Assembly: GCA_043228905.1 (NCBI GenBank)
Contig: JBHGNT010000002.1
Span: 7,564,001 to 7,628,000 of the forward strand
Source: Azolla caroliniana
Taxonomy: Eukaryota; Plantae; Polypodiophyta
Direction: 5' to 3'
Length of the DNA stretch: 64,000 bases
The position numbers and the translations under genes are program-made. The notes beneath the pieces were generated by a model. That model was not told the origin of the DNA, did not search any database, and saw only the letters and a list, made by a program, of their open reading frames with translations. Of this stretch, positions 1 to 60,071 are shown piece after piece. Position 1 is the first letter of the stretch, and every line of letters starts with the position of its first letter.

Positions 1-1723
1 TGACTAAGGACATCAAATTTGTTTGCTAGGTTCGGACTGTAAGTACTATTAGGACTATCATGCACACCTAGGGAAATAGACTCGGTTTTAGTACTGTTAA
101 AACTATCATGCGTAGCTAAGGCAATAGACTCAGGTTTAGTACTATTAGTACTAGCAGTAATTTGGTTTACCTGCCTTTTTGGCCTATGGGGACAATTTAT
201 TGCAATGTGTCCTGGTCCACCGCAGTAAAGACATAGTCGATTTGTACGACGTCGCTGCTTTTCCTCTTCGGATAATGGCCCTCGACGACGTGTTGTGTCA
301 ATCTCCATCGGAGTCGGAGTATTCGCTGGAGGTGCAAGGTATGACTCCCTCGGAAAAGGTCTTGATGTCACTGAGGCGTAGGTGGGCTCCGATCTTGCCC
401 TCGGCATCTGTAGTTGTCGTTCCGAACGACGCTCAAATAGACGGTTGTCGCATCTTACCGCGCGACTAATTGCTTCTGTTAAGGACTTCGGCTCTTCGGG
501 GAAGGTCAAGAGTAAATCCTTGACATCGTTGCGTAAACCGTAACGGAATTGCTCCATTAACGCTTGATCATCCCAAGGAATATCGGCGGCGAGTAGGCGA
601 AAATCTGCAGCGTATGCGGAGGCTGGACGATCACCTTGACGTAATCGCCGAATTTTGTTGATTGCGGTTCTGATGCTGTCAGTATCTCCGAAACATGCTT
701 TAAACTCACCGATAAATTCTTCAAAATTATTGAGCAACGGGGATTCCTTTTCTAATAGGGGAGCGAACCACGCCAACGCTGAGCCACTTAATAAAGTTCC
801 TACTAAACCCACTCGTGATGCATCGGTGGGATATCGACAAGGATGCATTTGAATAACTAGTCGTACCTGATTAAGGAACCCTCTAAACTGCGATCGCGTT
901 CCATCAAACTTCGTGGGAAGGCCAATCTTGGGTTCTTTATGAGTTCCTTGTGTTGCGGGCCCGTGTTGTTGCATCGCCACGATGGTTGCTTCGAGTTGTT
1001 GTACGCGTAACGCAAGTTCCCCATGCTGTTGCTGCGTTTGCTGTTTTTCTAAGGAGATTTGTTGAAGATCCCCCAGCAACCGTTGGTTTTCTTGTTCCAA
1101 AGCATGAAATTTCTCCTTCAAACATTGAAACTCCGAAAAAACGGATTGATATTCTTCAGCGCTAACAGTGGCCATGGGATGAAAGAGAAGAGGAATTAAG
1201 AGACTAGTAGGAAAGGGGAGAGATAAGAGGGAGAGGAAGGGCAAATTGGTTCAAACTGTCAGGAATCAGTAGTAAGACGGAGACGGAATTAGTACTAAAC
1301 GAAGGATTAGTACTACAGAGAAGGGATTAGTACTAAACGAAGGATTAGTACTATGAGGGGTGTAGAACTTCTTGAGAGAGAAGGAAGAAGTGAGCGAGAC
1401 AGAGAGACAGAGAGAGAGAGAGAGAGAGAGTAATGATGAGAGAAATATATGTATTACGTGAAGAGAATGTACAACTGTGGCTAGAAGGCTTAAGACTGGC
1501 GTTGAACCAATTTGGTTCAACATAACGCCTAGTGCCCTCTTTTATAGTATTTCTAAGAGTAATCCTGAAGCTTCTAGAATGTTCCAGAGAAATCTGGAAT
1601 ATACATCAATTTCTAAAATAAAACATAAATGAAAATAATATCCTACAACTTATAATGTATAGTCTAATGGTAAGACCTCGACCCATGTAGCATAAGGTCA
1701 TGGGTTCGAGTCTTGCCATGACA
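1..1723 (-). mobile_element. Ty3/Gypsy chromovirus (Tcn1/Tf1-sushi-like), copy A: 5' LTR plus degenerate gag; continues beyond window start
   Basis: Reverse complement is homologous to 45388-47050: gag motifs EPKIGLP-KFDGTRSQFRGFL and a CCHC knuckle. LTR 1257-1723 has TG...CA ends. Confidence 0.9.
1257..1723 (-). repeat. 5' LTR of chromovirus copy A
   Basis: Element sense reads TGTCATGG...TCCTGACA; TATAAAA at 1540-1546 (minus); (GA)n tract; homologous to the LTRs at 45388-45848, 50613-51017 and 14797-15036. Confidence 0.9.
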
Positions 1724-2678
1724 CCATTAGCTTTTTCATTCCACCTTTCCCGAAGTTGAGTTGGATTGGTTGTTGAGTCTTTGTCGAGTGAATCTTTCCA
1801 TCTTGATAGTAGATTTTATCCTGATTAAGAGAATCCCTATGTTCTTGACAGTCTTTCTTTTGGTGGTCGACACTATCACACCACATACACCTTCGGACCA
1901 TTCCACCTCCTTGCCTTGATGAAGTCGAGCTTTGTCCCGATTCTAGCTTCGTCACTTTGATCAACAAGTCTTTCATGCCTTTCACCAACTCATGCAAGAG
2001 TGAATCTTCTATTTTCTTCTCTCCCGAGTCGTTTCCCGTTTTGTCTCCCTTCCTCTCCGGCAGCTCCATAAACCATAACTTTCGTTTACAGAAATGGGCG
2101 CAAGCCCTTTTCACCTCCTCCCAGTCTTCGGTAAGTCCACTCAGACTATTTTGATATTCCAGAAGCATTCCCAAGTCCTTCCTATCTTTAATATTAGTAG
2201 CTTGTAGAAACAATATTACTTTATCTAGCATTATTATATTTCTATCTCTAACATTTAATTGCTCAAATCTTTCTGAAAATTCTTTTAACACTTCCAAAAC
2301 ACTTAAATGTTTATCAGACTCTACCCAATCCATAAAAGCTCTCCTTGTCATCCTTGACATATCGTTGAGGTTGTATTCATTCAATAATTCTCTTTCGAAA
2401 GTCGCCCATGTATGATGCTCTCTCTGTAGCTCATGGACCCTTTCTTGTAGCCCAATCACAATGACTCGACTAAAGCTATTAATTTTTGCAGCTTCGTCGA
2501 CACCTCGTTTAAGCATTTCTTCATTGTAAATCTTCAGAAACCTTGTTAAATTCATACCTTCGAAGATCCCTACTCGTGCAAGAATATTGTTGATGGCTTT
2601 GTCGATGCTTGCCATCATCCCTTGCTCTCGTATCATTCGTTCCATCATCGTACACATAAGCCTCATTTGCTCCTCCAT
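1724..2678 (-). CDS. Retrotransposon Gag with zinc knuckle, truncated by insertion
   Basis: ORF 1698-2678 has an FEG-N motif and CMWCDSVDHQKKDC (CX2CX4HX4C); its last codons run into the inserted LTR. Confidence 0.7.
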
Positions 2679-3447
2679 TTTTCCTTGACCGCCTTCACAT
2701 CGGGTTCACCAAATGTATCGGGGTAGTTGTGGTTCGTGCGGTGAAGTCGCATGGACTAAGGTTAAGGGGAGTTGAAGGAACTTTAAGGCTTGCGCACAAA
2801 TGTTAGGAAGATTAAGGATAAAAAGAATAAGAGTTTAAAGTAATGTGTGAGAGAGAGAGACGAGTATAGATAAAGGATAGAGACAATGTATGATTCAAGA
2901 AGCAAGATAGAGACAAAGTATGATTTAAGGAAAAAAAGTATATGATATGAACATGATGTATATTACGAATACAAGATTTTACCAACTTTACAATGCTTGA
3001 TTGAAAGATGAACCCTGTCTCTACCGACTCTTGATTCGAACCCTTGACTCCAACTTGGAAACATGAGCCTCTTCACCAACAAGCTAACTTATTATTTGTT
3101 TCGTTCATTATCTTATTTCTCTAACTTTCTCTTCATTGATTGATTACCCTGTTTTCCCATTAATTCATCCCTTAATTCCTTGCGTCTCTTTATAGGTTCT
3201 CTCATGCATATGATGATATGGTGGTGCATGGCATGCATGTAATGCATGTGATGCATGATCGTCATTTGGCGCACATCCTTTACATGTGATGCATGATAGC
3301 CATCATGCTCATCTAAGCTCTAATGTATGAAAATACACATGTCATAAGTATAATATAACTATAGAAAGTAACTTATTCTAATGGTATATTCTTCGTCCTT
3401 GGTGTGTGAGGGTATGGCTTCAAGTCTCTCAAATATTACTTAATACA
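1724..3447 (-). mobile_element. Ty3/Gypsy-type LTR element, 5' part (LTR, tRNA-Trp PBS, gag), interrupted by chromovirus copy A
   Basis: 2694-2711 (TTCACATCGGGTTCACCA) matches the 3' end of plant tRNA-Trp at 17/18 nt as I recall it. LTR begins at TG 2714; far end near 3447 is uncertain. Gag ORF follows. Confidence 0.7.
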
Positions 3448-4102
3448 ATATTGAAGTTTATTTTTATATCGTGAAGCAAATCCTTCACGACAGCGTCAGT
3501 GTCACTGATCTAGGCGATGGCGCTACAACGATCGTGGAGGTGAGGGGGAATTTTGGTGAAACGTCAACCTTTGCGTCCGACATACTCGGAGTAGGCGGCG
3601 GGGATGATGTTGGAGACGACGCTAGGGGCTTTTGTGGTGTGGAAGGGGATGCCATCCACCGACAAATGTAGTGTAGTGCAAACGTCGGCGACGTTGAACG
3701 GGAACTCGACAGGGGTAGCATCCGTGAAGGTGTGCGTGCGAATGTGGCCGATATCAGGGTTGTATCCCGTGAGGAACCGGTTGACCAGCTCGGGAAGTAC
3801 ACCCCAAAGACCAATCCGAGGAAGAACGTGAGGCCCGATATGTACAACGGGTGTTGACCTTGGCTTGAATTACCAAGGAGGCACAACCGACGTCGGGGTA
3901 GTGCGCGTGGAGGAGCTTGGTGAATTGGATGGACGCCATCGATTATAACATGCCAGGACAAAGGTTAGTAGAGTTAAATGGAGTGTAGAAATTCTTGCGT
4001 GTCTTGACCCTTGTCTACCTCGAATTGTTATTATTATTATTATGATTTTTTGTTTATTTTTATTTTTAATTTTATTTATTTAGATTTAGATTTAGATTTA
4101 TT

Positions 4103-4144
<42 letters not shown>

Positions 4145-4199
4145 TATCGACCACGATATTGTATGGACCTAATGACATGAACACTTTATTCGTAGGATG

Positions 4200-5030
4200 G
4201 GGGGTTTGGAGGGGTTAAGTGGGTAAAAGTTTGAGGAGTAAGTCTCCTCGAACCGGGGGTAGGGGGTTCGAGGAGAACCTCTCCTCGAACCGGTGGGTAG
4301 GGGTTCGAGGAGTAAGTCTCCTCGAACCGGGGGAGGGGGTTCAAGGAGTAGGGATGTGGAGAGGAGCTCTCCTCGAACCGGTGGGGGGTTCGAGGGGTAA
4401 GTCTCCTCGAATCAGGGGTAGGGGGTTCGAGGAGTAAGGCTTCGAAGAGAACCTCTCTTCAAACTGGTGGGGAGGGGTTCGAGGAGCAAGTCTCCTCGAA
4501 CCGGGAGTAGGGGTTCAAAGGGAGCCTCTCCTTGAACCGGTTGGGAGGGGTTCGAGGAGGTAGTCTCCTCGAACCGGTGAGGGGTTTGGAGGGGTTAAGT
4601 GGGTAGAGGTTTGAGGAGTAAGTCTCCTCGAACCGGTGGGTAGGGGTTTGAGGAGTAAGACTCCTCGAACCGGTGGGTAGGGGTTTGAAGGGAGCCTCTC
4701 CTAGAACCGGTTGGGAGGAGTTCGAGGAGTTAGTCTCCTCGAACCGGTGAGGGGTTCGAGGAGGAGGGTGTTCGATGAGAACCTCTCTTCGAACCTATTG
4801 GGAGGGTTTCGAGGAGTTAGTCTCCTCGAGCCGGTGAGGGGTTCGAGGAGGAGGGGTTTTGAAGTGAACCTCTCTTCGAACTTGTTGGGAGGGGTTCGAG
4901 GAGTTAGTCTCCTCGAACCGGGGTTAGGGGGTTCAAAGAGAACCTCTCGTCGAACCTATTGGGAGGGTTTCGAGGAGTTAGTCTCCTTGAACTGGGGTTA
5001 GGGGGTTCAAAGAGAACCTCTCTTCGAACC
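4200..5030. repeat. Array of ~30-35 bp G-rich hairpin units (GGTTCGAGGAG-n5-CTCCTCGAACC)
   Basis: Repeated inverted-repeat units separated by GGGGGTAGGGG-like linkers, seen directly. Confidence 0.9.
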
Positions 5031-5629
5031 AGTGGGTGCGGGGGGTGGGTCGTTCGAGTGTTGTCCGAGGGTCTTTGTATAATTTTAAGGACCCAGATCT
5101 GTGACATCTTTGTCGAAGGGACGACGGGGGCCTGTGGAGTACTTTTATGGGGCGTTCGTCCCCCTAGTTGTTTAGTCTTGTCGATTTCTCTGGCCTTAAC
5201 CTAGGAGGGGTATTTGACCGATGTAATTGTCGGGTGTCCCGTGTAGTCGTGGTACGGTCGCGGGTGGGGAGCCGGATTTGTTTCGGGACCCAGAAGCAAG
5301 TGGCCCTTTGTGCCAACCTTGGGCAGTTGTGAGTGTGTTTCTGACTCGCCAAATAGCATGTTCTCCATGGCGTGGTCCTTCAACGAAAACCCCGTGGATG
5401 TTAACCCATTTGCGTGGTGTGGGTGTCTTTGTTTTGATGTTAGCGTTGCTATGGTCATGGATGGCCGGTGGGTGTTGCTGTTCTGTTTGGTTGGGCGGTT
5501 TCGCGCTTTGGGGTTTATCGAGGTCAGTGGGACGTGATTCAAGTGTTGTTGCAACGAGGTTCTTGGACCTCACCCCATTTGCCGTTTGGAAGGAGACGAT
5601 GTTCTTGCTTGGCGACGGGAGGCATTCGC

Positions 5630-14796: not shown

Positions 14797-16722
14797 AAAG
14801 CTTAAGACTGGCGTTGAACCGATTTGGTTCGAAATAATGCCTTGTGCCTCCTTTTATAGTGTTTTCAAGAGTACTCTTCTAGAATGTTCTAGAGATATCT
14901 TGAAATATACATCAATTTTCTATAGTGAAATAATAAATGAAAATAGTATTCTTCATATTACAATATATAGTCTAATGGTAAGGGCTCGACCCATGTAATA
15001 TAAGGTCATGGGTTCGAATCTTGTTATATCATGACACTATCCCCCCTTTAAAACGATGAGTGTTATGAGTCGTTCTGGATTGAGGACCCGGTTTGTCTGG
15101 ATATTGACGATGGAACTCTTTAAGAAGAGCATGAGCATTGGTCACATTCTCTATCGGTTCCCAGGTACGCTCGCTAGGGCTATATCTGAGCCAATCGATC
15201 AAATAGTAGAGCTTGTTGCGAATAATCTTGGAATCGAGGATGGCGGCAACCTTGTACTCAGGTCCATCTTCAAGTTCGATCGGAGGTGGAGGCGGTTTGA
15301 TACGACTTGGGATAGTGTTGTCCTGATAGGCTTCTAGAAGAGAACTATAAAAAATACCGGATGTATCCGTAGTTGCGGAGGTAGATCGAGACGAAAAGCG
15401 ACATCATTAATTTTTCCGATAATACGGAAAGGACACAATCGCCGATAATCCAATTTATCACATGGGCGAGTAGTCTTGATGTGTCGGCTAGATGTGTTGT
15501 CGGCTAGATGGAAGCCGATGATGATTCGCATAATCCTTGTATGTTTGTTGAGCTTGTTGTAAATGAGTAGATAAATCCACTTGTATCTTGTGTAACTAGT
15601 CCAAACGATCCTCTGCACAAGGATTTGTGGGTAACTCCAGAGTTTCGAATACACACCACCAGGGATGATAACCCGTATAAGCATAAAATGGTGTAACTTT
15701 AGTCAATGAGTGGACAGAGTTATTATACGCAAATTTGGCGAAGTGGAGAATATCCGCCCAGTCATCTTGGTGATAGCTTAGAAAACATCGAAGATAATGT
15801 TCTAACGTTTGATTTGTTCGTTCTGCTTGTAAGTCTGTTTGCGAGTGGTAGCCAGAGGAGAGGTTACAAGTGACCATGACCATTTTGAAGAGGTGATTCT
15901 AAAATTTCTTGACGAACTAGGGTCCACGGTTGCTGATGATACTATTGGGGAGGCCATGATGCCGACATACCTCATGCATGACAGTTTCAACAGTTTCTTC
16001 ACTAGTGATTTCCTTAGTACATGGAAGGGAATGGGCCATCTTCATCATCGCCTAGTTGTGAAATAATGCTACCCAAGGCGAAATCCGACACATCTGCCTC
16101 AATGATGAAAGGTTTTGTCGGATCAACATGAGCTAGAATAGGAGCTGATGTGAATGCCTTCTTAAGTCTCTCAATAGGCATGTCCGCTTCTTTAGACCAA
16201 ACAAACGACTACCCCTTCTTGTTAAGTTGTGTGAGAGGCAGAATAAGCTTTGAGTAATCCTGTATAAACTTGCGGTAAAATTTGGCAAAGCCTAAAAAGC
16301 ATTGCACATCTCGCAACAAACGTGGAGTCTGCTACTCTATCATAGTTTTGACCTTAGCTGAATCTATAGAGATGCCTTCCGAGGAGATGACATAGCCCAG
16401 AAATTCCACCTGGTTACACTCGAAACTACATTTTTCTAGTTTTGGATAAATACCATGTTCTCGAACCCATTTTAGTACTAACAGTACATGAGAATAATGC
16501 TCTTCTTAGGCCTTCAAATAAACTAGTAGATCATCCAAATAGATGATCAAACAAAAATCCAAGAGATCTTAGAATATATCATTTGCCATGTGTTGGAAGA
16601 CTCCTGGTGCATTAGTGAGACCGAATGGCATGACCGTATACTCGAAGTGCCCATATCTGGTGCGAAACGCGGTCTTCCATTCATCTCCTAGTTGGATCTG
16701 TACGAGGTTATATGCTCCTCGT
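14797..16722 (-). mobile_element. Chromovirus copy B: internally deleted RT/RH/integrase-chromodomain, PPT and partial 3' LTR
   Basis: Homologous to 48000-50850; PPT reverse complement CTATCCCCCCTTT at 15037-15049; LTR part 14797-15036. Confidence 0.88.
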
Positions 16723-36000: not shown

Positions 36001-39000
36001 CCATGGGAAAAGGAAACATATAACAGATAAAAACTTCAATGAATGCAGCCACAGCCCTGAAGAAACACAAAGAATTAATGTACAGAAATAACAGAAAAAG
36101 CAACCATCCCTACATATTATTATCATCTCTCAAAGCAAAAAGAGCATGTTGGTGTAAAAACCATGTGGGCTGAACAAAGTGCAAATTACCTGAAGCTTTT
36201 GAACGATATAAAGCATAGGAATTGCAAAAATAAGTATCTCCCATGTGATCACAGCAATCACAATAAGAATTCCGAGTAGTTCAAGAGTTCCAGCCAGTAC
36301 AAAACCAAAGCAGAATGGCATGTCCAAGTCAAGCATGGTCAAATCTGTAGAAAACTAAAGGTAAAACAAAAAGGGAAAAAAATTTCACAGACCCTTCTTC
36401 TCACAATGAATAAATGTTAAAACAATCTATGATACATACTCGGCTAAGGATTCTTCCGGTTGGAGTGGAATCGAAAAATGACATAGGGGCTTTGAAAATC
36501 TTCCGTGTCATATCGTAGAAGAAAGCTTTGGAAGCTTTAAGACCCAACCATACATTAAATGTTGATCTTAGATGAACAAATACAGCACTAGCTACTGAAA
36601 GCAGAGCATATACACCAACTAGCAACCCTTGAGACACCCTTGTATTGCTGACCTCAGCTGCTAGCCAAAAGTTACTTAGAACTTGCAAAATGACAAACAA
36701 GGCCTGCCATATGCTCATAAAAACAAAAACCAGCAATCCTTTAGAAACCGTTATATATTCTTTGTACGGCTTGAGGCCTATATCTCCCTTCTCTGTTTCT
36801 TCATCTTGTACAAGTTGAATAGCTTCACCCAGACGATCAACCCAACTACTTGCTTTTCTACTTAGCTTCCTTTGCATTCGGTTGGATTCAGAGTATATTC
36901 CATCATCCGTGCGAATAGTTTCCCCAAAGCTAACAGTTGTCAACGCTTCCTGGTGAGCATTCACAAGCTGCTCAAATGTTTCGCCGGCATGCAATAGATC
37001 TGCATAACGTCCTGATTGCTGAATTTCCCCTCCTTGCATGACCTATAAGTTTTTTCACAGAATAGAATGTCATGAGTGAATATGTAGGATTATCATATTA
37101 TACAAGTCACCCATCATATAATGTCAACAGGGGTGGTTACTAACTTAGTTTCAAAAAATACAATGTCATGAGTTGATGCATAGAGCTATTGTAATATGTA
37201 AGTCAATAATCATATACGAGTTTGGTGAAATGCAAAGTATCAGGTTTACCAGGATACTATCTACAGCCGGAAGAAACTCCACTTGATGGGTCACAAGAAC
37301 AACCAATTTCTTGGCTAGCATTCCCATTATACAATCCTGCCAAGAAAATCAAAAAGCAAGATAGCTAGCAAAATATTACTATCATGTTGCAAAATATAGG
37401 TATGGATATTGTGATCTTCTCACATTGAATAACACTGCAGCTGTGTGCGCATCGACTGCACTGAAGGGATCATCAAGGAGATAAATGTCTGAATCACTGT
37501 AAACAGCCCTCGCAAGTTGTATCCTCTGTTTCTGTCCTCCACTCATATTGAGACCTCTTTCACCAATCTCTGTGAGATCTCCAAAAGCAAATCCTTTAAT
37601 ATCCTTATCTAATGAGCAAGCCTTAATGGTTTTTTGATAATAAACCTTATCAAACGGCCTTCCAAACAATATATTGTCCCGGACTGTCCCACTCTGTATC
37701 CAGGCAGATTGTGCTACATAGGCTGTAGTACCGACAATTTGCACCTACATATACAATGCTAGTTTCTTTCTGCTATAATAATTAATCCTCATTGATTAAT
37801 TTATCACAAAAAGATTGCTTCATTGCAGATCATTAGAGCTAATAAACTAACTATTATTGTAGGGCATGCTATAAAGATCTATGGATGGATGGTGAAACAT
37901 CAATATTCTGAACTCTCAGAAACTTTCCCACAACAATTATTACATTGCACCTAAGATTAAGAGCCTCTTTCTGTAGGTGAGGTGGAGCATACGTGGCTAA
38001 CAAAAGATAATAGATTAAATTATCGCCATGAGGCCTAGAAAAGTATGTTTATTCTAGTTCTGGCTTAGGCCATGGTGTAAAGGTCTATACCAGATGGACA
38101 GCAAATCTACATCTATTTTTCTAGTAACAGACATACATTAAATGTCATGTACAAATATAAAAGATGGAAATGATTTCGACTAACTACGTAGCATAAACAA
38201 CACCATTATAACTTTGATAAATAAAGACTAACAGTATACAAATTAGGTACTCACAGATCCCCTAAGCTTTGGTATCTCTCCTAGAAGAGCACAAATAAGT
38301 GAAGTTTTCCCCGAGCCCACCGCACCACAGACAGCAATCTTCTCTCCGGCTTTGAAGGTGAGATTGATATTTTTTAGTGTTGGTTTGGGAGACTCTGGGT
38401 TCCACGTGAAGGTACTATCACTGGCTCTGACAGCATATGCTTCTCCGACACTAACAGGAAGGCGTGTAATCGCATCTTTGGGCAGTTCATCGTCTCTAAG
38501 AAACTTCCCTATCCTATTCAGAGAGACAGTAACTTGGATATACGCCGCAAGAACTTCAGGTATCATTCTCACGGGATCTTGGATGATCTTGAAAGTGGCT
38601 AGCACCGTGAAAACAATTGTTGCATTTAGTGGCTGATTCAACCAAATGCAGCTTGCAAATACTACTGATCCAATTGCGATGGGTGATAGCCAATACAATA
38701 TAGTGCCCAACGATCTCCTTGACTGCATCTTTGAAAGCCATTTAAACTCCTCTTCTCGTAGCTCCTCTAAATGCAGCCTAAACCTATCTTCCCAAGCTTG
38801 CAACTTAAGTACTTTGATGTTGTTAAGGAGCTCAGTCGTGGCTCTAAGCCGCTGATCTTGAGCTACCATGTATTCCGACTGGCAATGTTGCAACGATCGA
38901 GCTAAGGGAGTGTTCAAGATGACAGTGCAGATAATGATAGCAAGACCCGGGATGGTAGCCAAACCAACAGTAATGAAGAGGATAATGATAGCCAATGCCA

Positions 39001-39997
39001 TTTGGACAGGCACCGCCCACATGTAATGCATATACCAAGGGAACTCGCCAATGCGATATGCATCTACGGCTACGTAGCTAACAATCTCCCCTGCTGCATG
39101 AGTTTTTCTTCCGATGCTTGAGAGCCGAAGCTCCTTCTCAAACACCGCTGCTAAAATGGCAGATCTCATTTGCATACCCAGCCTCCGGCATCCGAAATAC
39201 CAATGGCGTTGCGCCACGGATTCAACGATCTTGGCCATGAATAGGCCAAGGACCAAGAGGTAGCCGTCTAGCTTAGAGACCCCTTCTTCTTCACTAGGAG
39301 TGGTGGCTAGATTTGATGTATAATCAACAAAGTAGAGAAGAAAGAGTGGACCTGAGGTCATGGCAAGGGTGCGGAGAAGCGCGTAGAGACCCGTCTGCAA
39401 CGCGAGCGGATAGAAGCATTCGGAGAGGACTCGGGCAATCGAAGAAGGGTACGAATGTTTTCCCGGCTTCACAGAAGAGCTCCAAGGCCTGCTTCCATCT
39501 CTGGAGTTCAAATGTCCGTTTACATTTTTGCTGTTTGTGTCACCACCCTCAACAAAGTAGCCATGGTCGCCTGTTGCATCAGAGGGATTCCTGCCATAGA
39601 TCCTAGAGCTTCCATTAACGCTTACTTGTTCATTATTGGCATGGTTGGTTTTCTTGGTCCAAGCATCAGAGAAGGTCCGGAACAGAGTAGAAGCAGAGTC
39701 TTCTGGCGACAAGCGAGGTATATCCTGGAGGAGGAGAGATTTAGAGAATCCGGATTGAAGAATGGGATTGAGCCAGGAGAAGAGGAAGTGAGAGAGATAA
39801 GAGCAGGTATGATATGGTGTGATTGTGGAGGAAGTGGGAGGCAGGGGAAGCTCTGAAGAAGAAGAAGAAGAAGAAGGGAAATCATGATTGTCATGGGCAG
39901 GAAGAAATCTGGGGTCTGAAGATGGAGGAGAAGCAGATGAAGATGAAGGAGGAGGTAGTAAAGGTTGAAACAGGGTCTGCTCTGAGCTCTCCTCCAT
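33092..39997 (-). CDS. ABC transporter C family (MRP/ABCC, ABCC8/ABCC10-like), 11 coding exons, 1384 aa
   Basis: Exons 39997-38255, 37744-37424, 37336-37250, 37042-36440, 36354-36190, 35727-35439, 35233-35019, 34630-34325, 34210-34147, 33681-33442, 33213-33092. All introns GT-AG; total 4155 nt in frame. NBD1: [23 protein letters not shown]2: [22 protein letters not shown]. Start codon is inferred. Confidence 0.95.
34698..34882. mobile_element. Degenerate Mutator-like MITE in ABCC intron 7
   Basis: Imperfect TIRs GGGAAAACGCCAGAATAC / GATTTTGGTGTTTTTCC, similar in style to 42733-43044. Confidence 0.45.
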
Positions 39998-40361
39998 AGC
40001 CAAATAATTGCTGTGTGTAGCCGTCACACAGTAAACATATGGAAAACAGAGGATCCAGTTACATATTTAAAAGGAATTTTTTTTCTGAAGTTTGATTACT
40101 TCTTCTGTTCCTGAATCGGATCGATCTGCGCTCTCTTTCAGAAAATCAAATTAAAAATTGAAATCGAAGGCGGCCAAACTTTTGAGAAATCTCAAAGAAA
40201 ATGCCCAAAAACGCCAAAAAGAAAGCTCTGCAAAGATTGACCGTACTACGATCGTCATATCAATCACAGTCCGTATGCACGGATGGATGCCCAGGAGTAT
40301 GATTGAGTCATTACTTTTTTTCTCTGATTTTGTTATGCATGCATGCATCATGTATAGTATG

Positions 40362-45145: not shown

Positions 45146-45387
45146 TGTTGAGAATCAAGCTCAACATAGCACAACGTGTAAACACACCTTTTGAGAATCT
45201 ATGATTACTCAAAGGTCAAGAGTCACACCACTACTCTCTACACATTATTTATGTGACACATCACTAATGAGTTACATATTCCCCATGATTATGAGTCTTT
45301 ACATTCCCTAAGAGAGAGAGTGGTTGTTGTAAGTTAATGAAGAGAGAGGGTGACTCTATATAAAGCACCCTCCTCATACTTCTTACT

Positions 45388-45700
45388 TGTCATGGTATGG
45401 CAAGACTTGAACCCATGACCTTATGCTACATGGGTCGAGCTCTTGACCATTAGACCATACATTGTAATACGTAAAATATTATTTTCATTTATGTTTTATT
45501 ATAGAAAAATGATGTATATTCTAGATTTCTTTAGAACATTCTAGAAACTTCAAGAATATTCCTCAGAACACTATAAAAGGAGGCACAAGGTATTATTTGG
45601 AACCAAATCGGTTCAACGCCAGTCTTAAGCCTCCTAGCTACTACTGTACATTCTCTTCACATAATATATATATCTTTTCTTATCATCACACACACACACA

Positions 45701-45743
<43 letters not shown>

Positions 45744-48700
45744 TCCCTCTCACTCACTCTTTCCTTCTCTCGAGAGTTCTTCACCTCTCTTAGTACTAAT
45801 ACTTCTTTTAGTACTAATTCCTTCTCTGTCTTAGTAGTGTTCCTAACAGTTTGAACCGATTTTGTCGTTCTTCCTTCTGTATCTTCCTTTCCTCCTCTTC
45901 CTTTTATCTTCTTACTAATCCTCTTATCCTCCCTAGTAAAATGGAAACTGTTAGCGCTCAGGAATACCATTCTGTTTTCTCGGAGCTCCATTGCTTAAAA
46001 GAGAAATTTGTAGCACTAGAACAAGAAAATCATCGTTTGTTGGGGGATCTTCAACAAATAGCGCTGGAAAAACAACAAAAACATGGGGAGCTGACGTTAT
46101 GTGTATAACAACTCGAAGCGACTATCGTATCATTACAACAACAAGGATCAAGCACTCAAGGGATTAAAAAAGAACCCAAGATCGGTCTTCCTGCAAAATT
46201 TGATGGGACCCGATCACAGTTTAGAGGGTTTTTGAATCAGGTACGTTTAGTGATACAAATGCATCCTTCTCGATATCCCACCGATACATCACGAGTGGGA
46301 CTAGTAGGCACTCTCCTTAGTGGCTCAACGTTAGCACGGTTTGCTCCATTGTTGGAAAAGGAATCTCCATTACTAAACAATTTTGAAGAATTTATAAGTG
46401 AGTTTAAGACCTGTTTTGGAGATATTGACAACATAAGGACTGCAATCAACAAAATCCGGCAATTATGCCAAGGTGACGGTAGATAGCCTCCACATACGCT
46501 GTAGATTACCTTTCCTTGGGATGATCACACATTGATGGGGAAATTTCATTATGGTTTATGCAACGATGTCAAGGATTTACTCTTGACCTTCCCCGAAGAG
46601 CCAAAGTCATCAACATAAGCAATCAGTCGCGCGGTGAGATGCAACAACCGCCTCTTTGAACGACGTTTGGAACGACAATTCCAGATTCCGAGGGCAAGAT
46701 TAGAGCCTACCTACGCCTCAGTGGTAGCGAAACCTTTTCCGAGGGAGTCATATAATGTGCCTCCAATAAGTACTCCAACTCCGAAGGAAATTGACACCAC
46801 ACGTCGTTGTGGACCGCTATCAGAGGAAGAAAAGCAACGACACTGAGCAAACTGACTATGTCTTTATTGCGGTGGACCAGGGCATATCGCGGTAAACTGT
46901 ACCCATAGGCCAAGAAGGCAGGTAAACCAAATAGTTGCTAGTTCTGATTGTACTAAACCCGAGTTTATTTCAGTAGGGATATTTGATAGTCCTAATAGTA
47001 CTAATAGCCCAAATCTAGCGAACAAATTTGATGTCCTTAGTCAGTTAGAAGAAGAGTTAAACAATTAAGTCCATCCAAAATAGGAGCCATTTGGTTGGAC
47101 AACCCTAGATTTGTGCAACCCATTAGTGGTTCCATTCCCTCTAACCAAGTTAGCAATGTGTTCGTAGCCCAAGTAATAGTTAGTACTAAAAGTACCCCTC
47201 CAGTACATGTCTTAGCACTTCTAGATTCATGGATAGGAACTTTGCCCAAGCTCATCAAATATCTCTCAAAAACCTCCCGTGTCTAGCCTCTGTAGTAGTC
47301 ATTGATGGTCGTCCCGTTGCTTCCGGAAATATCATAGAAGAGTTAGAGCTCGTTAATATTGTCCTAGATAATCTAGCATGTGTAGTATCATTTAATATAA
47401 TTAGCATCCTAGAACACCCCATTGTTTTAGGATTACCATGGTTCAAATTACATAACCCAGACATAGATGGGAGAACAAGAGAAATCGGTATCGAAAAGCC
47501 CGAGGATCTACTCATGAGATTGCAACCATTTCGCTACATCAGTTGCGGGAAGAAGGACGCAAGGAAGAAATGTTTCTCTTCGCAATATCAGTAAAGCCTT
47601 CAGACACCATTAAAGAGGAGTTCACCGTTCAACTTCCAAAGAAGTATCATCATTATGCCGATGTGTTCGATAAAGTACAAGCCAATACGCTTCCTCACCA
47701 TCGACCGTATGATTGCCCCATCGATTTACAACTGGGGAAAGAGCCACCATGGGGACTGATCTACAATTTGTCACCAACCGAGCTAGAAGTCCTGCGAGCC
47801 TATATAGAGGAGAATTTGGAAAATGGTTTCATTCGACATTCGAAATCTCCAGCCGGTGCACCCATTTTCTTCGTCAAGAAAAAGGATGGATCACTTCGCC
47901 TCATTGTAGATTACCATGGCTTGAATAAGGTGACAATCAGAAATAGGTATGCACTTCCCCTTATCTCAAGCCTTTTAGAATGGATCAATGGTGCCAAGTT
48001 CTTCACGAAGATCGACTTACGGGGAGCCTATAACCTCGTACGGATCTGACCAGGGGATGAATGGAAGACCGCGTTTCGCACCAGAGATGGGCACTTCGAG
48101 TATACAATCATGTTGTTTGGCCTCACTAATGCGCCAACAGTCCTCCAGCACATGGCAAATGATATATTCCGAGATCTCTTGGATGTTTGTTTGATCATCT
48201 ATTTGGATGATCTACTGGTTTATTGGAAGACCCAAGAAGAGCATGATTTTCATGTACTGTTAGTACTAAAACGACTTCGAGAACATGGTCTTTATGCAAA
48301 GCTGGAAGAATGTAGTTTTGGGTGCAACTAGGTGGAATTTCTGGGCTATGTCATTTCCTCGGAAGGCATCTCCATGGACCCAGCTAAGGTCAAAACTATG
48401 GTAGAGTGGCAGACTCCGCGTTCGGTGCGAGATGTGTAATGCTTTTTAGGCTTTGCCAATTTTTATCGGAAGTTCATACAAGCTCGTTTTGCCTCTCACA
48501 CAGCTTACCAAGAAGGGACAATCGTTCGTTTGGTCTAAAGAAGCGGACATTGCTTTCAAAAGTCTTAAAAAGGCATTTACATCGGCTCCAATTCTAGCTC
48601 ATGTCAATCCAGAAAAACCATTCATTATTGAAGCAGACACATCGGATTTTGCATTGGGGAGCATTCTGTCACAACGGGGTAATGATGAGAAGCTACATCT

Positions 48701-51017
48701 TGTGGCTTTCCACTCACGCAAGTTTGATGCCGCCGAAATCAACTACAAAATTCATGATAAGGAGCTATTGGCAACATTGGACTCTTTTACGCAATGGAGG
48801 CATTTTCTAGAGGGATCCTCTCATCAAATCACCGTATTTAGTGACCACAAAAACCTTGCATACTTTCAGGATGCTCGTGTGTTAAATTGACATCAAGCTC
48901 GGTGGGCCCACTTCCTCACACATTTCGACTTCAAAATTACATATCATCCGGGGAAGCACCAAGGGAAGGCGGATGCATTATCGCGGCATTCGTACCTAGC
49001 ATCGCGTCCCGGCGAGCCAGCTTTTGATAACCAAAAGCAAGTAATCTTGGGACCGACACGACTACAAGCAACACAGGTCTTTGGCATGCCAATGGATTCC
49101 CACATTATCGATACTATACGTGAGGATTTGAAAACCGATGTTTTCGCCCAAGCCATTCTAGCACAAATTGATCCCTCTCGAACATCTTGTTCACAGTCGC
49201 AACCACCAGGTAGGGACTATCGGCAATTCAAATACCATGATGGATTACTATTCTTTAATGAACTCTTGTATGTTCCTAATGGTTCTTGCCGCCTTCGAGT
49301 AGTCCAAAACTGTCATGACACATATACAACTGGGCATTTTGGTAGTACTAAAACATTAGATTTAGTACAATGATCATTTTGGTGGCCCCGTATGCGACAA
49401 TTTGTCTAAGATTTTGTTCGGACTTGTGATACATGCTGCAGAGTGAAAATGCCAAGGCATCATCCATATGGTTTATTAGAACCATTACCAAATCCAAGCA
49501 AGCCATGGCAATCCATTGCTCAAGACTTCATCACAGATCTTCCAGTCTCTAAGGGGTTCAATGTGATTCTAACAATCGTAGATCGATATACGAAGAGGGC
49601 TCATTTCTTGCTATGTACTAAGGAAATATCCAGTGAAGAAACCGCTGAAATTGTCATGTGTGAAGTATGTCGGCATCATGGCCTTCCCGATAGTATCATC
49701 AGCAACCGTGGACCCCAGTTCGTCTTGAAATTCTGGACGCACCTTTTTAAAATGCTCAAGGTCACATGTAACCTCTCCTCCTACTACCACCCACAAACGG
49801 ATGGCCAAGCAGAACGAACAAATCAAACACTGGAGTAGTATCTTCGGTGCTTTCTAAGCTATCATCAGGATGACTGGGTAGATATTCTCCACTTTGCCGA
49901 ATTTGCCTACAATAACTCTGTCCATGCATCAACTAAAGTTATGGCATTTTATGCTTATACGGGTTCTCACCCCTGGTGGTGTGTATTTGAAACCCCAGAG
50001 TTGTCCACAAATCCTTGCGCAGAGGATCGTTTAGAGCGGTTACGCAAGATACAAGCCGATTTATCTACTCATCTCAAACAAGCTCAACAAACACACAAGG
50101 TTTATGCAGATCGTCATCGACTTCCATCCAGTCTTAACATTGGAGATCAGGTATGGCTACTATGACGACACATCAAGACTACTCGCCCATGCGAAAGTTG
50201 GATTATCGGCGATTAGGTCCTTTCCATATTATAGGAAAGATTAATGATGTCGCTTTTTGTCTCGATCTACCTCCGCAACTTCGGATACATCCGGTGTTTC
50301 ATAGTTCTCTCCTCCAACCCTATCAAGAGAACACCATCCCAGGACGTATTATACAGCCTCCACCCCCGATCGAGCTTGAAGATGGACCTGAGTACGAGGT
50401 TGTCGCCATCCTTGATTCCAAGATTGTTCGCAACAAGCTCTACTATCTAGTCGATTGGCTAGGATATAGTCCAAGTGAGTGTACTTGGGAACTGATAGAG
50501 AATGTGACCAATGCTCGTGCTCTTCTTGAAGACTTCCATCGTCAATATCCAGACAAATTGGGTCCTCAATCCAAAACGACTCGTGACACTCGTCGTTTTA
50601 AAGGGGGGATAGTGTCATGATATGGCAAGACTCAAACCCATGACCTTATACTACATTGACCATTAGACCATACATTGTAATACGTAGAATATTATTTTCA
50701 TTTATGTTTTATTATAGAAAATTGATCAGATTTCTCTAGAACATTCTAGAAACTTCAGGAGTATTCCTCAGAACACTATAAAAGGAGGCACAAGGTGTTA
50801 TTTGGAACCAAATCGGTTCAACGCCAATCTTAAGCCTCCTAGCTACTACTGTACATTCTCTTCACATAATATATATATCTTTTCTTATCATCACTCTCTC
50901 TCTCTCTCTCAGTCCCTCTCACTCACTCTTTCCTTCTCTCGAGCGTTCTTCACCTCTCTTAGTACTAATACTTCTTTTAGTACTAATTCCTTCTCTGTCT
51001 TAGTAGTGTTCCTGACA
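45388..51017 (+). mobile_element. Full-length chromovirus copy C (Tcn1/Tf1-sushi-like), LTRs 45388-45848 and 50613-51017
   Basis: TSD TTACT/ATACT; gag-PR-RT (YLDD)-RH-INT-chromodomain, with many stops; PPT AAGGGGGGATAG at 50601-50612. Confidence 0.95.
50385..50560 (+). other. Group I chromodomain at the integrase C-terminus
   Basis: EYEVVAILDSK...YLVDWLGYSPSECTWE retains the Y/W/Y aromatic-cage residues. Confidence 0.88.
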
Positions 51018-51386
51018 ATACTAAGTCGGTTGTGACTCCTTGTAATGCTACAATTTTGTATATCCATTCTACTTGTGAAATATATATCTTCTTCTTCTTG
51101 AGTATTCCTTTTTCTATCTATCTTGTGTTCTCTCATCTCTCCTCTAATTCCTCTCACACATACACATAACACACATCTCTTCCGCTACACAAGAATCATA
51201 CTCGATTCTTTACATGGTATCAGAGTGATTTGGTAGCTCGATCTAGCCCACTCGCCTCATTGTGATCGTGTGTTGTGCTCTACGCCGACGTTCAAGAAGA
51301 ACCGGCTCATCGCTATCGTAGTGCGACTACATAGCTCGTGTTCGAGAGAGAAGGAAAAGAAAAGAAGGAAGAAATCTACATCGACA

Positions 51387-54300
51387 ATGAATACTCAAAT
51401 GGGGAGCGCTCTCCCTAGCGAGAAGTTGGATCGCAACAACTTTGCATCTTGGGAGTACAAGATGCACCAATACCTTGTCGGCCAAGGCTATTGGAGCTAC
51501 ATCAAAGGAGTATAAGAAAATCGGCCCAACCCGGAAGACGCTGACTATGCAACGTGGGAGCAAGCGGCAATCCGAGTGATGTATTGCTTGGCGACATGTG
51601 TTCAGGACCACATGCTCGGGTACATTTGAGAAGCCAAGACGCCGAAGGAAGCGTGGGAGAATCTACGAAAGATTTTCGCCGCCAACACGACCGCGAGAAA
51701 GCTTCAACTCCGCCAAGAGTTGAATAATATCCAACAAAGGGATATGTCCGTCACAAGCTACACTTTGAAGATCAAGGAGCTTTGCAACTCGCTCGGCTCG
51801 ATAAGCATAAACGTGGAGGATGACAAGATGGTGCAAATATGCCTCGGCGGCCTTGCACCACGGTTCAGCGCAATGCAGACCGCCATACTAGCACGGGAGA
51901 ATCCGCCCTCCTTCTTCGACCTTCAATTCATGTTGTTGGTCAAAGAGAATCATGTTCGAACAAGGAACAACGGCTTGGAAGGCCAAGTGCTCTACACGCA
52001 TTCGGACGGAGGAAGAGGATGCGATCGTGCAAGAAGAGGCCGATTCGGCCAAGGACGTGGCAGACGAGGCGGACAAGGCCCGATTTACGAAAACAACTCG
52101 CAATTTCGGCATCAAGACGGAAGCCATCGAGGAACCTTCGGAAGAAGGGGGAGCTTCCATTCCGGTCCGAACCGACAAAGCTCGGTCGAATGCGGATATT
52201 GCGGAAAAATAGGTCACCACGAAGAAGAATGCCGTGAGAAGATATGCAAGTCGGCTTACACTAGCCGACAACTCACCAACTACGCCATCAACTCCGACTA
52301 TGACGATCGCGGCGGAATGTTCGTGATGAGACATAGAGCGAATTCTATGTCGGCCTCTACTTCTACTAGTGCCTCCGGTCCACAAGACGTATGGTTCGTC
52401 GATTCCGGTGCCTCGAAACATATGACGTCGAATCAAGAATGGTTCTGAGAACTTCGAGAGCCGGACCACCCGGTTATGTCGAAACCGGAGATGACACTAC
52501 ACACCCGATTCGGCACATCGGCAATGTTCCGTTCGGAGAAGAAGGTAAGCAAACGTATATTAAAAATGTCTTGCATGTACCAACTATCACGAAGAATTTG
52601 GTCTCCATCGGCCAAATTATAGAGCAAGGAATGCAAGTATGATGTAATCAAGGCGGTTGCTTCATCGAAAAAGAGGGCCGACTCATTGCTCACGGACGGA
52701 GAGAGGGCCGAATGTTCATTCTTGACTCACACGAGATGAAATCGGCCATGTTCGCAAAAGGCACGAAAGTCGAGTCCGACATAGAGTTATGGCACAAGCG
52801 GATTGGCCATATCAACCTTCAAAAGCTCAAGGCAATGCAATCGAAAGGAGTCGTCATCGAGCTCCCGACATTCACGGAGAAAGAGATTGAAGGCGTGTGT
52901 GCCACTTGCCAATTCGGCAAGCAACATTGGCACCCATTTCCGAAGGAGCGGAACGTGAGCAAAGGCGTACTCGACGTAATTCATGCCGATGTATGGGGTC
53001 CGGCTCAGATGACGACATTCAGCGGATGCCGGTACTACGTGACCTTCATCAACGACTTCTCTAGGCACACTTGGATCTACCCGATGCGGCAAAAGAGCGA
53101 AGTGTTCGGACACTTCCAAAAATTCAAGAATGAAGTCGAGAAAGCCACTGGCCGACATGTACGATGTCTTCGGTCGGATGGAGGCAAGGAATATTTCTCG
53201 GATGAGTGTATGACGTTTCTACGGAAAGAAGGAATATGGCGAGAGTTTTTGTGTCGACATACGCCACAACAAAACGGAGTGGCCGAATGCAAGAATCGGC
53301 ACATCCTTGAAGGGGCCTGGGCTATGCTTAACGAAAAGCACATGCCGAAATTGTACTGGGCAAAAGCAGCTAACACGGCCATATACGTCATGAATCGGTG
53401 TACGACATCCGGCGTGCATGAGCTCACGCCGCACGAAAGGTTTTTCGGAAAGAAGTCGGATCTATCACACGTCCGGATATTCAGCTCCATTGCGTATGTG
53501 CACATCCCTGACGAAAAGCGACAAAAGCTCGACCCGAAACCGGAGAAATGTATCCTCATCGGATACTTACTGGAGCAAAAGGGGTACAAGTGCTATAACC
53601 CCTCGACTCGAAAAGTTCGCGTAAGTCGTGATGTTGTTTTCGACGAGTCCGCATCTTGGTACACACTAGAGACAACTTCAACTCCGATTCCGCTCGACCT
53701 GGAATCCCCCGAGCAAGAGATAGAGGATGAAGATTGCTTTACGTGCATGTTCACAGAAAGTCCGATCACGACCCGACTGAGCGGACCACAAGAGCCTTTG
53801 AACGATCAAAGCACATCTCGACCAAGTTCGAAGTTGGACAAAGGGAAGGCCAAAATGCTGGAGTTTGAAGACGCTCATTTCGATGGCAACAAATCGACTC
53901 ACTCCCTCGATAGTGAGTTCGAAGGCCTTGACATCTGGACAAATGGAGTGAAGAAAGCCTTAGAATCCGCAAACAAGAAGCTACGCCGATCCACTCGTGA
54001 AAAGAACCCTGTAAGCCGCTTCGGCTACGATGAGTATATGGCATACCATTACGCCTTTAAGATGAAGGTCGCACAAGTACGAGAGCCGGAAACCTTTTCC
54101 GAAGCTGTGAAGGACCCGCGATGGATCGAAGCAATGAATGAGGAGATGCGTGCACTACGCAAGAACGACACATGGGATATCGTTGCCCACTCACCGCATA
54201 GGAAGGCGATCAGATGTAGATGGATCTACAAGGTGAAGTATAATGCCGATGGCTCCGTCAACCGCTACAAAGCTCGACTCGTAGCGAAAGGATATGCACA

Positions 54301-55746
54301 AACACATGGCGTCAACTACGAAGAGACCTTTGCCTCGGTGGCAAAGATGACGACAGTGTGGACCGTGATCGCACTTGCAGCAACAAAAGGGTGGCACCTC
54401 CACCAAATGGACGTCAAGAACGCCTTTCTTCAAGGTGAATTAGACGAGGAGGTGTACATGGTACAACCACCCGACTTCGAATCGCGCATTCATCCAAAAG
54501 CTGTATTCCAACTCAAGAAGCCTCCCTACGGCCTTAAGCAAGCACCGTGTGCTTGGCATTCGAAGATTACGCAATATCTTCATCAAATCGGCTTTCGAAT
54601 GTCGAAATCCGACAACTCCCTCTACGTACGACACAACTCTAGAAGCTTAATTGTTATCATCCTATACGTGGATGATCTGGTCATTGGAGGTGGAAGTCTA
54701 GTCGACATCAACAAGGTCAAGTCCCTCCTCTCCGGAAAATTCAAGATGACGGACATGAAGGAGCTCCATTACTTCCTTGGCATCGAAGTAATTTGGATTC
54801 CGACCGGCATTATGATCTCTCAATGGCACTACATTCTCAACTTATTATACAAGTTCCGGATGACTGAGTACAAATCGGTCGCTACACCTCTCGATCGAAA
54901 CCTCAAACTAGATGCTGACTCCGGCACAGACGAGTGCGAGCCGACCCAATATCGTCAACTGATCAGGAGCCTCATCTATCTCACAATCACTTGACCCGAC
55001 CTTAGCTATCCAGTCGGACTCCTCAGCCAATTCATGCAAAAACCACGCACATTCACTTGGATTGCGCTAAGCGAGTATTACAATACGTGAGCGACACAAT
55101 GGATTATGGCGTTCTCTACGCATCGGCCACACCAATACGACTCGAAGGGTACACAGACGCAGACTGGGTAGGCTACAAAGCTGATCGACAATCGACCTCC
55201 GGATTTGTCTTCTCGCTCGGTAGCGGAGCAATATCTTGGAGTAGTAAGAAGCAACCTACTGTCGCACTTTCGAGTATGGAGGCCGAATACAGGGGCGCAA
55301 CCGTAGTTGCATGTGAAGCCGTATGGCTCAAGAGGATTTTGAAGGATCTGGGCGTTCCCATCAAGGATTTGACTCCCATTTACTACGACAATATGAGTAG
55401 TATATATCTGGCTTGGAACCTGGTGTTCCACGCATGCACAAAGCACATCGAAGTGCACTATCACTTCATTCAAGAGCCCGTACAAGCCGGAGATGTCGAC
55501 CTTCAACACATTAACACGAATCTTCAGACGGCCGACATCTTCACCAAAGCTTTAGGAGCCGACAAGCTTCGGAAATTCATGTCAGACCTTGGATTGACGA
55601 TCCCTGACTTGCCAGACTTGAGGGGGAGTACAAGCGAGAACCGGATACTGTCCGAACTGCGTACGAGCCGAAGCGGGCACCGGAGATCGTCTGAACCGGA
55701 TACCAACCGAAGTGGACATCAATCGAAAGGAACTAACCTGAGTTGA
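51387..55746 (+). pseudogene. Copia gag-pol with a few stops and frameshifts (longest ORF 52712-54994)
   Basis: WHKRIGH, RSDGGKEY, PQQNGVAE, KARLVAKGY, QMDVKNAFL, YVDDL, DADW motifs. Confidence 0.93.
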
Positions 55747-56404
55747 GCTTGAGGGGGCGTGTTGAGAATCAAGCTCAACATAGCACAACGTGTGAACACA
55801 CATTTTGAGAATCTATGATTACTCAAAGGTCAAGAGTCACACCACTACTCTCTACACATTAACTATGTGTCATAGAATCATATTCTATGACACATAACTA
55901 ATGAGTTACATATTCCCCATGATTATGAGTCTTCACATTCCCCAAGAGAGAGAGTGGTTGTTGTAAGTTAATGAAGAGAGAGGGTGACTCTATATAAAGC
56001 ACCCTCCTCATACTGCATACTAAGTCGGTTGTGGCTCCTTGTAATGCTACAATTTTGTATATCCATTCTACTTGTGAAATATACTTCTTCTTCTTCTTCT
56101 TGTGAAATATATCTATCTTGTGTTCTCTCATCTCTCCTCTAATTCCTCTCACACATACACATAACACACATCTCTTCCGCTACACAAGAATCATACCCGA
56201 TTCTTTACAAGTAATGACCACCATGATGCTTGAATCTTTGTTTTCCCGTGCACCAATCCTTCATGCTCAATAAAATATTGCTTCATAGATATCCATGGTT
56301 GATCTTGTTGACATATATCTCGTAATAATGCAAATCTACGAGCCATCAAATGCATTTCCGCATACAATATTGTTGCACCACCTAACCTTTTGGGAGTAGC
56401 CAAA

Positions 56405-59139: not shown

Positions 59140-59950
59140 TTCTTTGCATTATCAATGTGCTTGCGTCACCAACAAGATGATTGGGTACTTTCAGTAACAA
59201 AGTTTTCCTACAATAATTCTCTCCATGCATCGACTGACGTCACTCCATTCTTTGAAAATTATGGTTTACATCGTCGGTTCAACATTTCCTTCCCTACCAC
59301 TTACATGAACCCTTCGGCGGAGTGTCAAGCCCTCATTTTTGGAGCTACATCACAATTTATCCTTGGAGCTTAGTCTCGCTAGTGAACGATACAAGAAGCA
59401 AGCTAATCACCATTGATCTGCCACTCCACACTTTGTCGTCAAAGATATGGTCTGGTTGTTACAACGACACATCTCTACTACCCGTCCACGCTCGAAATGT
59501 AATTACAAGATGTTGGGACCATTCCATATGGTCGAGCGCATCAATCCCATCACCTCCTGGTTGGCCCTTCCATCCCACTTCCAGATTCATGATGTTTTTC
59601 ATGTCTCCCTCCTCGAACCCCATTATGCTTCACAACTCCCGGGACACTAAGCCCCACCACCACCACCACTTGTGGAGTTGACGATAGGGGAGGAATACAA
59701 GGTCAACCAAATACTTCACTCGTGTTTGCACCATCAACACCTTCAATACCTTGTCTTGGAAGGGTTACCCCATGTTTGACGCCACATGGGAACCAACAAA
59801 GAATTTACAAAATACCCTAAAGATGGTCCAGGATTTTCATCTCCAGTATCCCCACAAAACTAGCAATCGGTTTGGGAAGGCAACGTAAAAAGAGGGATAA
59901 TGTCACATTCTAAACTCGAACCTTTGACCTTGTCACACACCTAGTACAAA
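59140..59950 (+). mobile_element. 3' fragment of a second chromovirus family (integrase tail, chromodomain, PPT, LTR start)
   Basis: LGPFHMV...IHDVFHVSLLEP; chromodomain remnant (ATWEP); AAAAAGAGGGATAA then TGTCAC at 59901. Confidence 0.8.
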
Positions 59951-59989
59951 GTGTTATGTTAGATAAACCATATGAAAACTCTTGAGTTA

Positions 59990-60071
59990 TGTTGATCGGA
60001 CAAGCTCAATTGGACCGTGATCGGTTGAGTAAGCCGGAGCCGGATTGGTATTCGGAACGGAGAACCGGATG
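59990..60071 (+). repeat. Short Copia LTR 5' fragment
   Basis: TGTTGATCGGACAAGCTCAA followed by sequence similar to the LTR at 18054-18145. Confidence 0.55.

Follow-up and report, generated by a model that had tools for sequence, protein, structure and literature searches.

RNA polymerase III (Pol III) promoters within LTRs are known from non-autonomous TRIMs, where they transcribe the short element. Cassandra and Ajax have captured Pol III promoter boxes in their LTRs, derived from 5S sequences (A, IE and C boxes) and kept by selection, and the Cassandra promoter drives the element's own RNA (PMC10886601). Helenus (TRIMp3), a TRIM without coding capacity that measures 311-1263 bp and has a tRNA primer-binding site (PBS), carries a tRNA-derived sequence in both LTRs that is conserved on boxes A and B, has no functional cloverleaf, is not the primer, and is thought to transcribe the element from the captured promoter; one Helenus family is known from Selaginella (PMC10886601). 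The same account remarks that 'not a few' LTRs in Repbase are similar to a portion of a tRNA, but its analysis was confined to TRIMs, so autonomous cases exist that have not been described. Barrier, insulator and roadblock activity is known in yeast for Pol III complexes and TFIIIC sites (PMC4228148). Among chromoviruses, Tf1-type self-priming is given for Tcn1 elements of non-seed plants (PMC6317226), and the available part of the relevant survey reports Tcn1 from mosses and Selaginella, not from ferns (PMC2864245).

The 64,000-nucleotide stretch of Azolla caroliniana DNA analysed here (the window) contains chromovirus LTRs in which a tRNA-like module occupies the initial 65-70 nt of U3, antisense to gag-pol. 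The 5' LTR of copy A (1257-1723, minus strand; 467 nt, TGTCA...TGACA) carries on the plus strand an A-box-like or tRNA D-arm segment at 1660-1670 (T8, A14, G18 and G19; tRNA position numbers follow the usual convention), the variable-loop motif AGGTC at 1695-1699 (positions 44-48) and a B-box-like or T-loop segment at 1703-1713, with a box spacing of 43. In copy B, a truncated 3' LTR (14797-15036, minus strand; PPT ~15037-15049) holds a plus-strand module at 14968-15021 (A box 14968-14978, B box 15011-15021; spacing 43). Copy C, which is full-length and decayed, has its module on the minus strand at 45403-45457 of a plus-strand 5' LTR (45388-45848), with the A box at 45457-45447 and the B box at 45413-45403, 44 nt apart. 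The module in its 3' LTR (50613-51017, plus strand; PPT 50600-50612) is damaged: 12 nt are deleted between the boxes, and the B box has a C-to-T change. The box positions and spacings that an earlier note on this DNA had given for the three copies were all reproduced, as were the deletion in the copy C 3' LTR, the antisense orientation and the chromovirus context. That note had also placed a reverse B box at ~59914, just inside the LTR of a second chromovirus family. This LTR head (59901-59989, plus strand), which is interrupted at 59990 by a Copia-type LTR, does contain a reverse B box at 59912-59922 (confirmed over 59914-59922) and AGGTC at 59926-59930, but its A box is missing (A score -13.8), leaving only half a module.

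The host element is a Ty3/gypsy chromovirus: remains of reverse transcriptase (RT), RNase H, integrase, SH3 and chromodomain lie in the window, and the PR-RT-RH-INT order, C-terminal chromodomain, TG...CA LTRs and PPT are those of a chromovirus. Copy C spans 45388-51017 (element of ~5.6 kb) with gag-pol remains, has a target duplication TTACT/ATACT that matches at four of five positions, and encodes at 50393-50542 (plus strand) a chromodomain with three aromatic cage residues (Y, W, Y). A relative, L031, has an intact, open 1194-aa pol frame running PR-RT-RH-INT-CHD. The element is autonomous. Its family is very abundant, the LTR being matched by 2,104-4,869 contigs per run in all four DNA runs, under three organism labels.

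Priming is of the Tf1 type, with the element priming itself and having no tRNA PBS. In copy A, the Pol II TATA box of the LTR (1540-1546, minus strand) lies 114 nt from the A box and points in the opposite direction. R starts 33 nt below the TATA box with a 12-nt self-primer (1502-1513, minus strand), to which the primer-binding site at 1243-1254 (minus strand), a sequence with no TGG, is complementary at 12 of 12 positions. The self-primer of copy C (45605-45616, plus strand) pairs with a partner site at 45851-45862, again 12/12, both sides having changed in step relative to copy A. Across nine elements, six have a 12/12 match and the other three have 11, 11 and 10; the two sides co-vary between families, the primer-binding 12 nt begins two bases after the 5' LTR, and the TATA-to-primer distance is 32-33 nt in all nine. 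A palindrome spans the start site in self-priming elements (the window copies and L037, L039, L041, L044 and L060). Because these elements prime from an LTR-derived site, the module is not a primer site. An extended primer site for a tRNA, with CCA as its end, was likewise rejected as an explanation, because the elements self-prime and the CCA at 1724-1726 is flank, the LTR ending at 1723. In L037, L041, L044, L060 and L106, the primer site and gag directly follow a 3' LTR, indicating either tandem elements with a common LTR or collapsed high-copy assemblies.

Self-priming and the aromatic-cage chromodomain suggest that the element belongs to the Tcn1 clade (Tf1/Sushi), an assignment made by these features, the tree rows being unnamed; the relatives that do have names are Tf2-like elements from fungi, fish, amphibians and protostelids. 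The window element thus shares with Tcn1 / Tf1-Sushi elements the PR-RT-RH-INT-chromodomain order, the aromatic cage, self-priming and a non-seed plant host, whereas a tRNA-derived U3 module goes unmentioned in the available text on those elements (PMC6317226; PMC2864245). It resembles Helenus in having tRNA boxes in its LTRs but is autonomous and self-priming, has its own Pol II TATA box, and carries the module facing outward, antisense, in all positive loci; a short non-coding body, a tRNA PBS and a promoter placed to transcribe the element are all lacking. No account of backwards tRNA boxes in the LTRs of autonomous chromoviruses turned up in a literature search of openly accessible papers; Repbase entries, subscription journals and the supplementary files of PMC10886601 and PMC6317226 may contain such cases.

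Several other features of the window were recorded. A Copia element (45146-45387 and 51018-51214; 55760-56209) harbours copy C in its 5' LTR, ~30 nt below that LTR's TATA box, and this Copia element has a long open pol stretch at 52643-54994. Positions 4174-5032 hold an array of ~37-nt units within another Gypsy element, each unit being a small inverted repeat with GGTTCGAG and CTCGAACC. A host ABC transporter C-family gene occupies 36401-40066 (minus strand), its closest labelled homologues being from ferns (Pteridium and Psilotum, 58-63% identity).

The module resembles the tRNA-derived type 2 Pol III promoter, in which an A box is followed by a B box: its spacing is 43-44 (46 in L059), and that of real tRNAs is 42-47. 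The combined tRNA-trained A- and B-box score is 33.5 for copy A, 33.6 for copy B and 28.3 for copy C, whereas the highest value in 30 locally shuffled windows is 21.9. An nhmmer profile built from 72 unrelated tRNAs of prokaryotes and phages returned window positions 1658-1718 as its top match in the 530,578 nt searched (E 6e-5), with the LTR head of L040 and then those of copy C and L031 coming next. In a covariance model built from 70 of these 72 tRNAs, the three window modules are the top three matches in the 64 kb (20.5 bits for copy B, then 19.8 and 13.4; E 0.007, 0.01 and 0.4), and nine of the 17 weak matches over 24 loci are LTR heads of the clade. Covariance-model similarity to tRNA, one of the checks that the earlier note had proposed, is thus present, though below the level of a tRNA. 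ARAGORN made no tRNA call at the module, even at a relaxed threshold, and Rfam gave no tRNA match to it at E up to 5 or 10. Across eight families the acceptor stem has two to four of its seven pairs and the anticodon stem one to four of five, while the D and T stems keep partial pairing; such loss of cloverleaf pairing is expected if it is the DNA boxes, rather than a tRNA, that matter. The idea that the module is itself a tRNA gene was rejected on account of the ARAGORN and Rfam results, the lost cloverleaf and a score of ~20 bits at best in our own model.

We infer that a tRNA gene, or the head of a tRNA-SINE, was captured once, long ago. No isotype of origin stands out among the 70 tRNAs compared, a set that is prokaryotic and not the host's. 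The earlier note had suggested a captured tRNA/SINE head, of which the tRNA origin stands and the SINE donor was not found, there being no SINE body, tail or target duplication around the tRNA head in the LTR heads inspected. In L033, a repeat unrelated to the chromovirus contains two or three degenerate tRNA-like units (289-550), one of which has an A box identical to that of L034/L040; this repeat may be a candidate host SINE or MITE donor. Copy A is itself inserted into an unrelated LTR element (2700-3492, minus strand) with a tRNA-type PBS at 2700-2712 and a gag without a Pfam match. The LTR of that element has, in a comparable position, a weak antisense A+B pair (3374 / 3417, spacing 43) whose score of 13.6 does not exceed that of the shuffled windows. 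It also has a sense B box (3042) and shares a motif in U3 with the L040 and L044 LTRs; exchange of LTR sequence between lineages is possible.

An alignment of the integrase and chromodomain yielded 99 loci, of which 89 were scored and ten, with fewer than 110 nt after the chromodomain, were not. An antisense A+B match at z 4-10 is present in 16 of the 89; L030 adds a match at a contig edge (score 14.5), and L048, a rearranged family member, has the B half only. The sense strand never scores in clade loci. None of the 71 loci outside the clade reaches z 4 (maximum 2.9), with a PPT-like tract and TG start called in 55 of them, and an end-to-end scan of all loci found no antisense A+B match in the outside LTR heads. 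In a quick tree without bootstrap (98 rows, four of 102 having been dropped as too short), the positives all fall on a single branch (SH-aLRT 98). It comprises 21 rows, of which 18 carry the module and three are from contigs that end before its position. Integrase identity to L031 within this clade is 58-79%, and the second window family lies outside it, on a long branch. The positives all come from this genome and from one contig series with a common name prefix, and may therefore share a host genus. A single-protein scan of viral contigs gave no loci; the 29 stretches in those contigs with a PPT, TG and reverse-B-box pattern, which are also part of the tRNA training data, are by eye tRNA genes or chance matches, with no LTRs among them. 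Separately, 18 loci (L110-L127) are eukaryotic chromovirus contigs that lie within 16 or so prokaryotic genome bins, most likely as contamination.

Comparison of the module between families was based on a table of eight, from which L042 was omitted as a worn sibling of L034 and in which copy A and L106 are close, so that 7-8 lineages are represented. T8, G18, G19, A44, G46, T47, G53, T54, T55, A58 and one middle T are invariant in all eight, A14, C56 and C61 are kept in seven, and the degenerate box positions 9, 10-13, 57 and 59 vary. Mean pairwise identity is 64% over A-box/D-arm positions 8-21 once a single 1-nt shift in spacing is allowed for (44% otherwise), 90% in the variable loop and 79% in the B core, the last value being partly circular because the B box served as the alignment anchor. 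Lower values apply upstream of the module (40%), in its middle (39%) and downstream of it (30%); composition alone gives 26-36%. Boxes no better conserved than neighbouring U3 were among the outcomes that the earlier note listed as refuting its reading, and here the comparison favours that reading. In an unanchored alignment of the eight whole LTRs, the box columns score 0.64-0.76, the TATA box 0.55 and the self-primer 0.66-0.84, the conserved islands being the module, the TATA box, the self-primer and the poly(A) signals. The A-B spacing is steady at 43-44 while the distance from the B box to the LTR end varies from 21 to 58 nt. Weak A boxes occur in L039, L042 and L060, and the CpG of the B box has decayed in old copies (both LTRs of copy C, L041, L059 and L106). 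Within the window family, depth-weighted polymorphic positions in run X1 number 1/11 in the A box, 0/11 in the B box and 2/24 in the middle of the hairpin described below, with 10/28 upstream at tenfold lower depth; A-box position 9 varies between A and G (among the 40 of 105 variant rows listed). At this level the whole head is held, hairpin included, and the boxes are kept no better than the hairpin between them. Taken across families, we conclude that the module is a real, clade-wide, selectively kept feature.

The earlier note described the segment as folding on itself, and the folding is real, though the hairpin is larger than it had stated and is confined to this family and its near relative L106. 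In copy A, a long hairpin over the module (~1662-1722) pairs the A box with the LTR terminus (z -5.7, with none of 200 shuffles as good). In the other six families the hairpin is absent (z -1.5 to +1.5) and the boxes are nevertheless kept, so for the clade we rejected the view that the A box merely mirrors the LTR end.

Directly upstream of the nominal tRNA +1, copy A has an AT-rich block (84%; 1608-1652, plus strand), a candidate TFIIIB site. The equivalent 45 nt are 80-89% AT in ten of ten LTRs, against 47-78% in the rest of U3; plant tRNA promoters have a mean of 72.5% AT (PMC3082873). A strict TATA at -29 to -34 is found in two of 18 cases (L038 and L041 only), and CAA at -7 to -3 in copy A alone, CAA elsewhere having no fixed place. 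The Pol II TATA box lies 114-208 nt from the A box across LTRs and faces the other way.

We propose that the module is kept as a TFIIIC docking site that would bound the Pol II promoter on its outer side, as a boundary or roadblock, a reading drawn from sequence to which we give about an even chance. By binding the backwards tRNA boxes in the U3 head, TFIIIC would bring TFIIIB to the AT-rich block, so that this complex and the Pol II TATA box would stand back to back. The chromodomain likely steers integration into silent chromatin, and the bound complex could then keep flanking heterochromatin, or read-through transcription, off the LTR promoter; any RNA from the module would be a by-product. 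By analogy, yeast tDNA barriers and extra-TFIIIC (ETC) sites also have A/B boxes beside a Pol II promoter and a product-independent role of the kind proposed here, but they are fixed host loci whose function has been tested (PMC4228148), while here the boxes are in a mobile element and their role is proposed from sequence. Retention of AGGTC counts against docking: at 90% it is kept better than the A box (64%), although it lies outside the boxes as usually written and is present in 22 of the 70 training tRNAs. The TFIIIC model leaves this unexplained, and it could point to a role at the RNA level. Methylation, too, may block TFIIIC in most copies.

Alternatively, the module might function as a Pol III gene and make a short antisense RNA that could tune silencing or plus-strand priming; RNA from the 3' LTR would cover the U3 head and the PPT, and RNA from the 5' LTR would enter the flank. 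Both boxes, the tRNA spacing and the AT-rich upstream block are kept, as such a gene would require, and Cassandra is transcribed from its captured promoter (PMC10886601). A four-T run does follow within 62-103 nt of the nominal +1 in seven of ten 3' LTRs, but its place is not fixed, the other three (L031, L035 and L060) have no T4 within 500 nt, and none of the ten has an early T5; nor would the RNA have a common fold across families. In poly(A) RNA of a related organism, two runs read to 12-13% gave six and two reads on both strands with no start site, and since poly(A) libraries lose short Pol III RNAs these eight reads are no evidence either way. The pattern, lacking a cloverleaf, a shared fold or a fixed terminator, fits recognition of the boxes in DNA better than it fits a product RNA, and we consider a working gene unlikely. 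The outward or antisense Pol III promoter suggested in the earlier note accordingly keeps its antisense boxes, whereas its RNA-making branch is weakened by the want of a conserved terminator and of TATA and CAA elements. Equally unlikely, in our estimate, is that the module acts on genomic RNA, with the 3' U3 annealing the T arm, variable loop and D arm of a host tRNA and so aiding dimerisation, packaging or strand transfer, in the manner of the 3' part of the bipartite PBS of Ty3. HIV-1 U3-R carries a tRNA-like sequence which, as in Ty3, binds the primer tRNA of a tRNA-primed element. The window element's RNA is the complement of a tRNA at this point, right after the PPT, and the variable loop and T loop form the longest conserved run. 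In Ty3, the tRNA-complementary U3 sequence at the 3' end of the genomic RNA binds the primer tRNA through its T and D arms (PMC5371799). Ty3 is tRNA-primed, whereas the window element primes itself, and what it conserves is the box bases and not complementarity to any one tRNA. Recognition of the boxes in DNA fits better than annealing of one host tRNA because no primer tRNA is needed, positions 49-51 and 59 and the middle vary between families in a way that misfits a single partner, and changes tolerated by G-U wobble are never seen at T8, G18, G19, G53, T54 or T55. The strong hairpin would, moreover, hide the site in the window family, and no isotype stands out among the 70 tRNAs, which are prokaryotic rather than the host's.

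The tRNA relic could also be a passenger beside the integrase attachment site, with the hairpin, and not the boxes, being selected in the window family. Four family members do have a strong hairpin (z -3.4 to -6.2), the head is invariant as a whole within the family and no cloverleaf survives, all of which such a passenger would accommodate. Retention of the boxes by the six families that have no hairpin speaks against it, however, and the stretch from the B box to the LTR end is both the least conserved (30%) and variable in length (21-58 nt), so nearness to the terminus is not protective; we regard this as decidedly doubtful. A landing pad or decoy, in which Pol III factors would attract elements that target tRNA genes, or the element's own integrase, appears highly improbable. 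It would account for the Copia-type LTR whose start, at 59990, lies 16 nt before the nominal +1 of the second-family half-module, a Ty3-like distance. That is a single event, though, and at a module without an A box; none of ten complete clade LTRs is interrupted there, loose ends and joints in the DNA runs, among the rows listed, do not cluster 12-20 nt upstream, and copies A and C are not inserted next to a tRNA gene.

That an element with its own Pol II promoter and no tRNA primer should yet keep backwards boxes across families differing by 20-40% in integrase indicates a role other than making the element's RNA. Under the TFIIIC docking model, an autonomous, heterochromatin-seeking chromovirus clade may carry its own tRNA-gene-type barrier, a putative TFIIIC/TFIIIB site at each LTR edge that would insulate the Pol II promoter after integration, every new copy or solo LTR adding a further Pol III boundary to a large spore-plant genome; this wider picture we put forward only tentatively. 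The tRNA-pseudogene and B-box counts of such genomes may be inflated by these LTRs. If the module is indeed a TFIIIC barrier, a very abundant repeat would spread TFIIIC sites across the genome, and the question of how chromoviruses remain expressible after integrating into silent chromatin would have an answer that is concrete and open to mutation.
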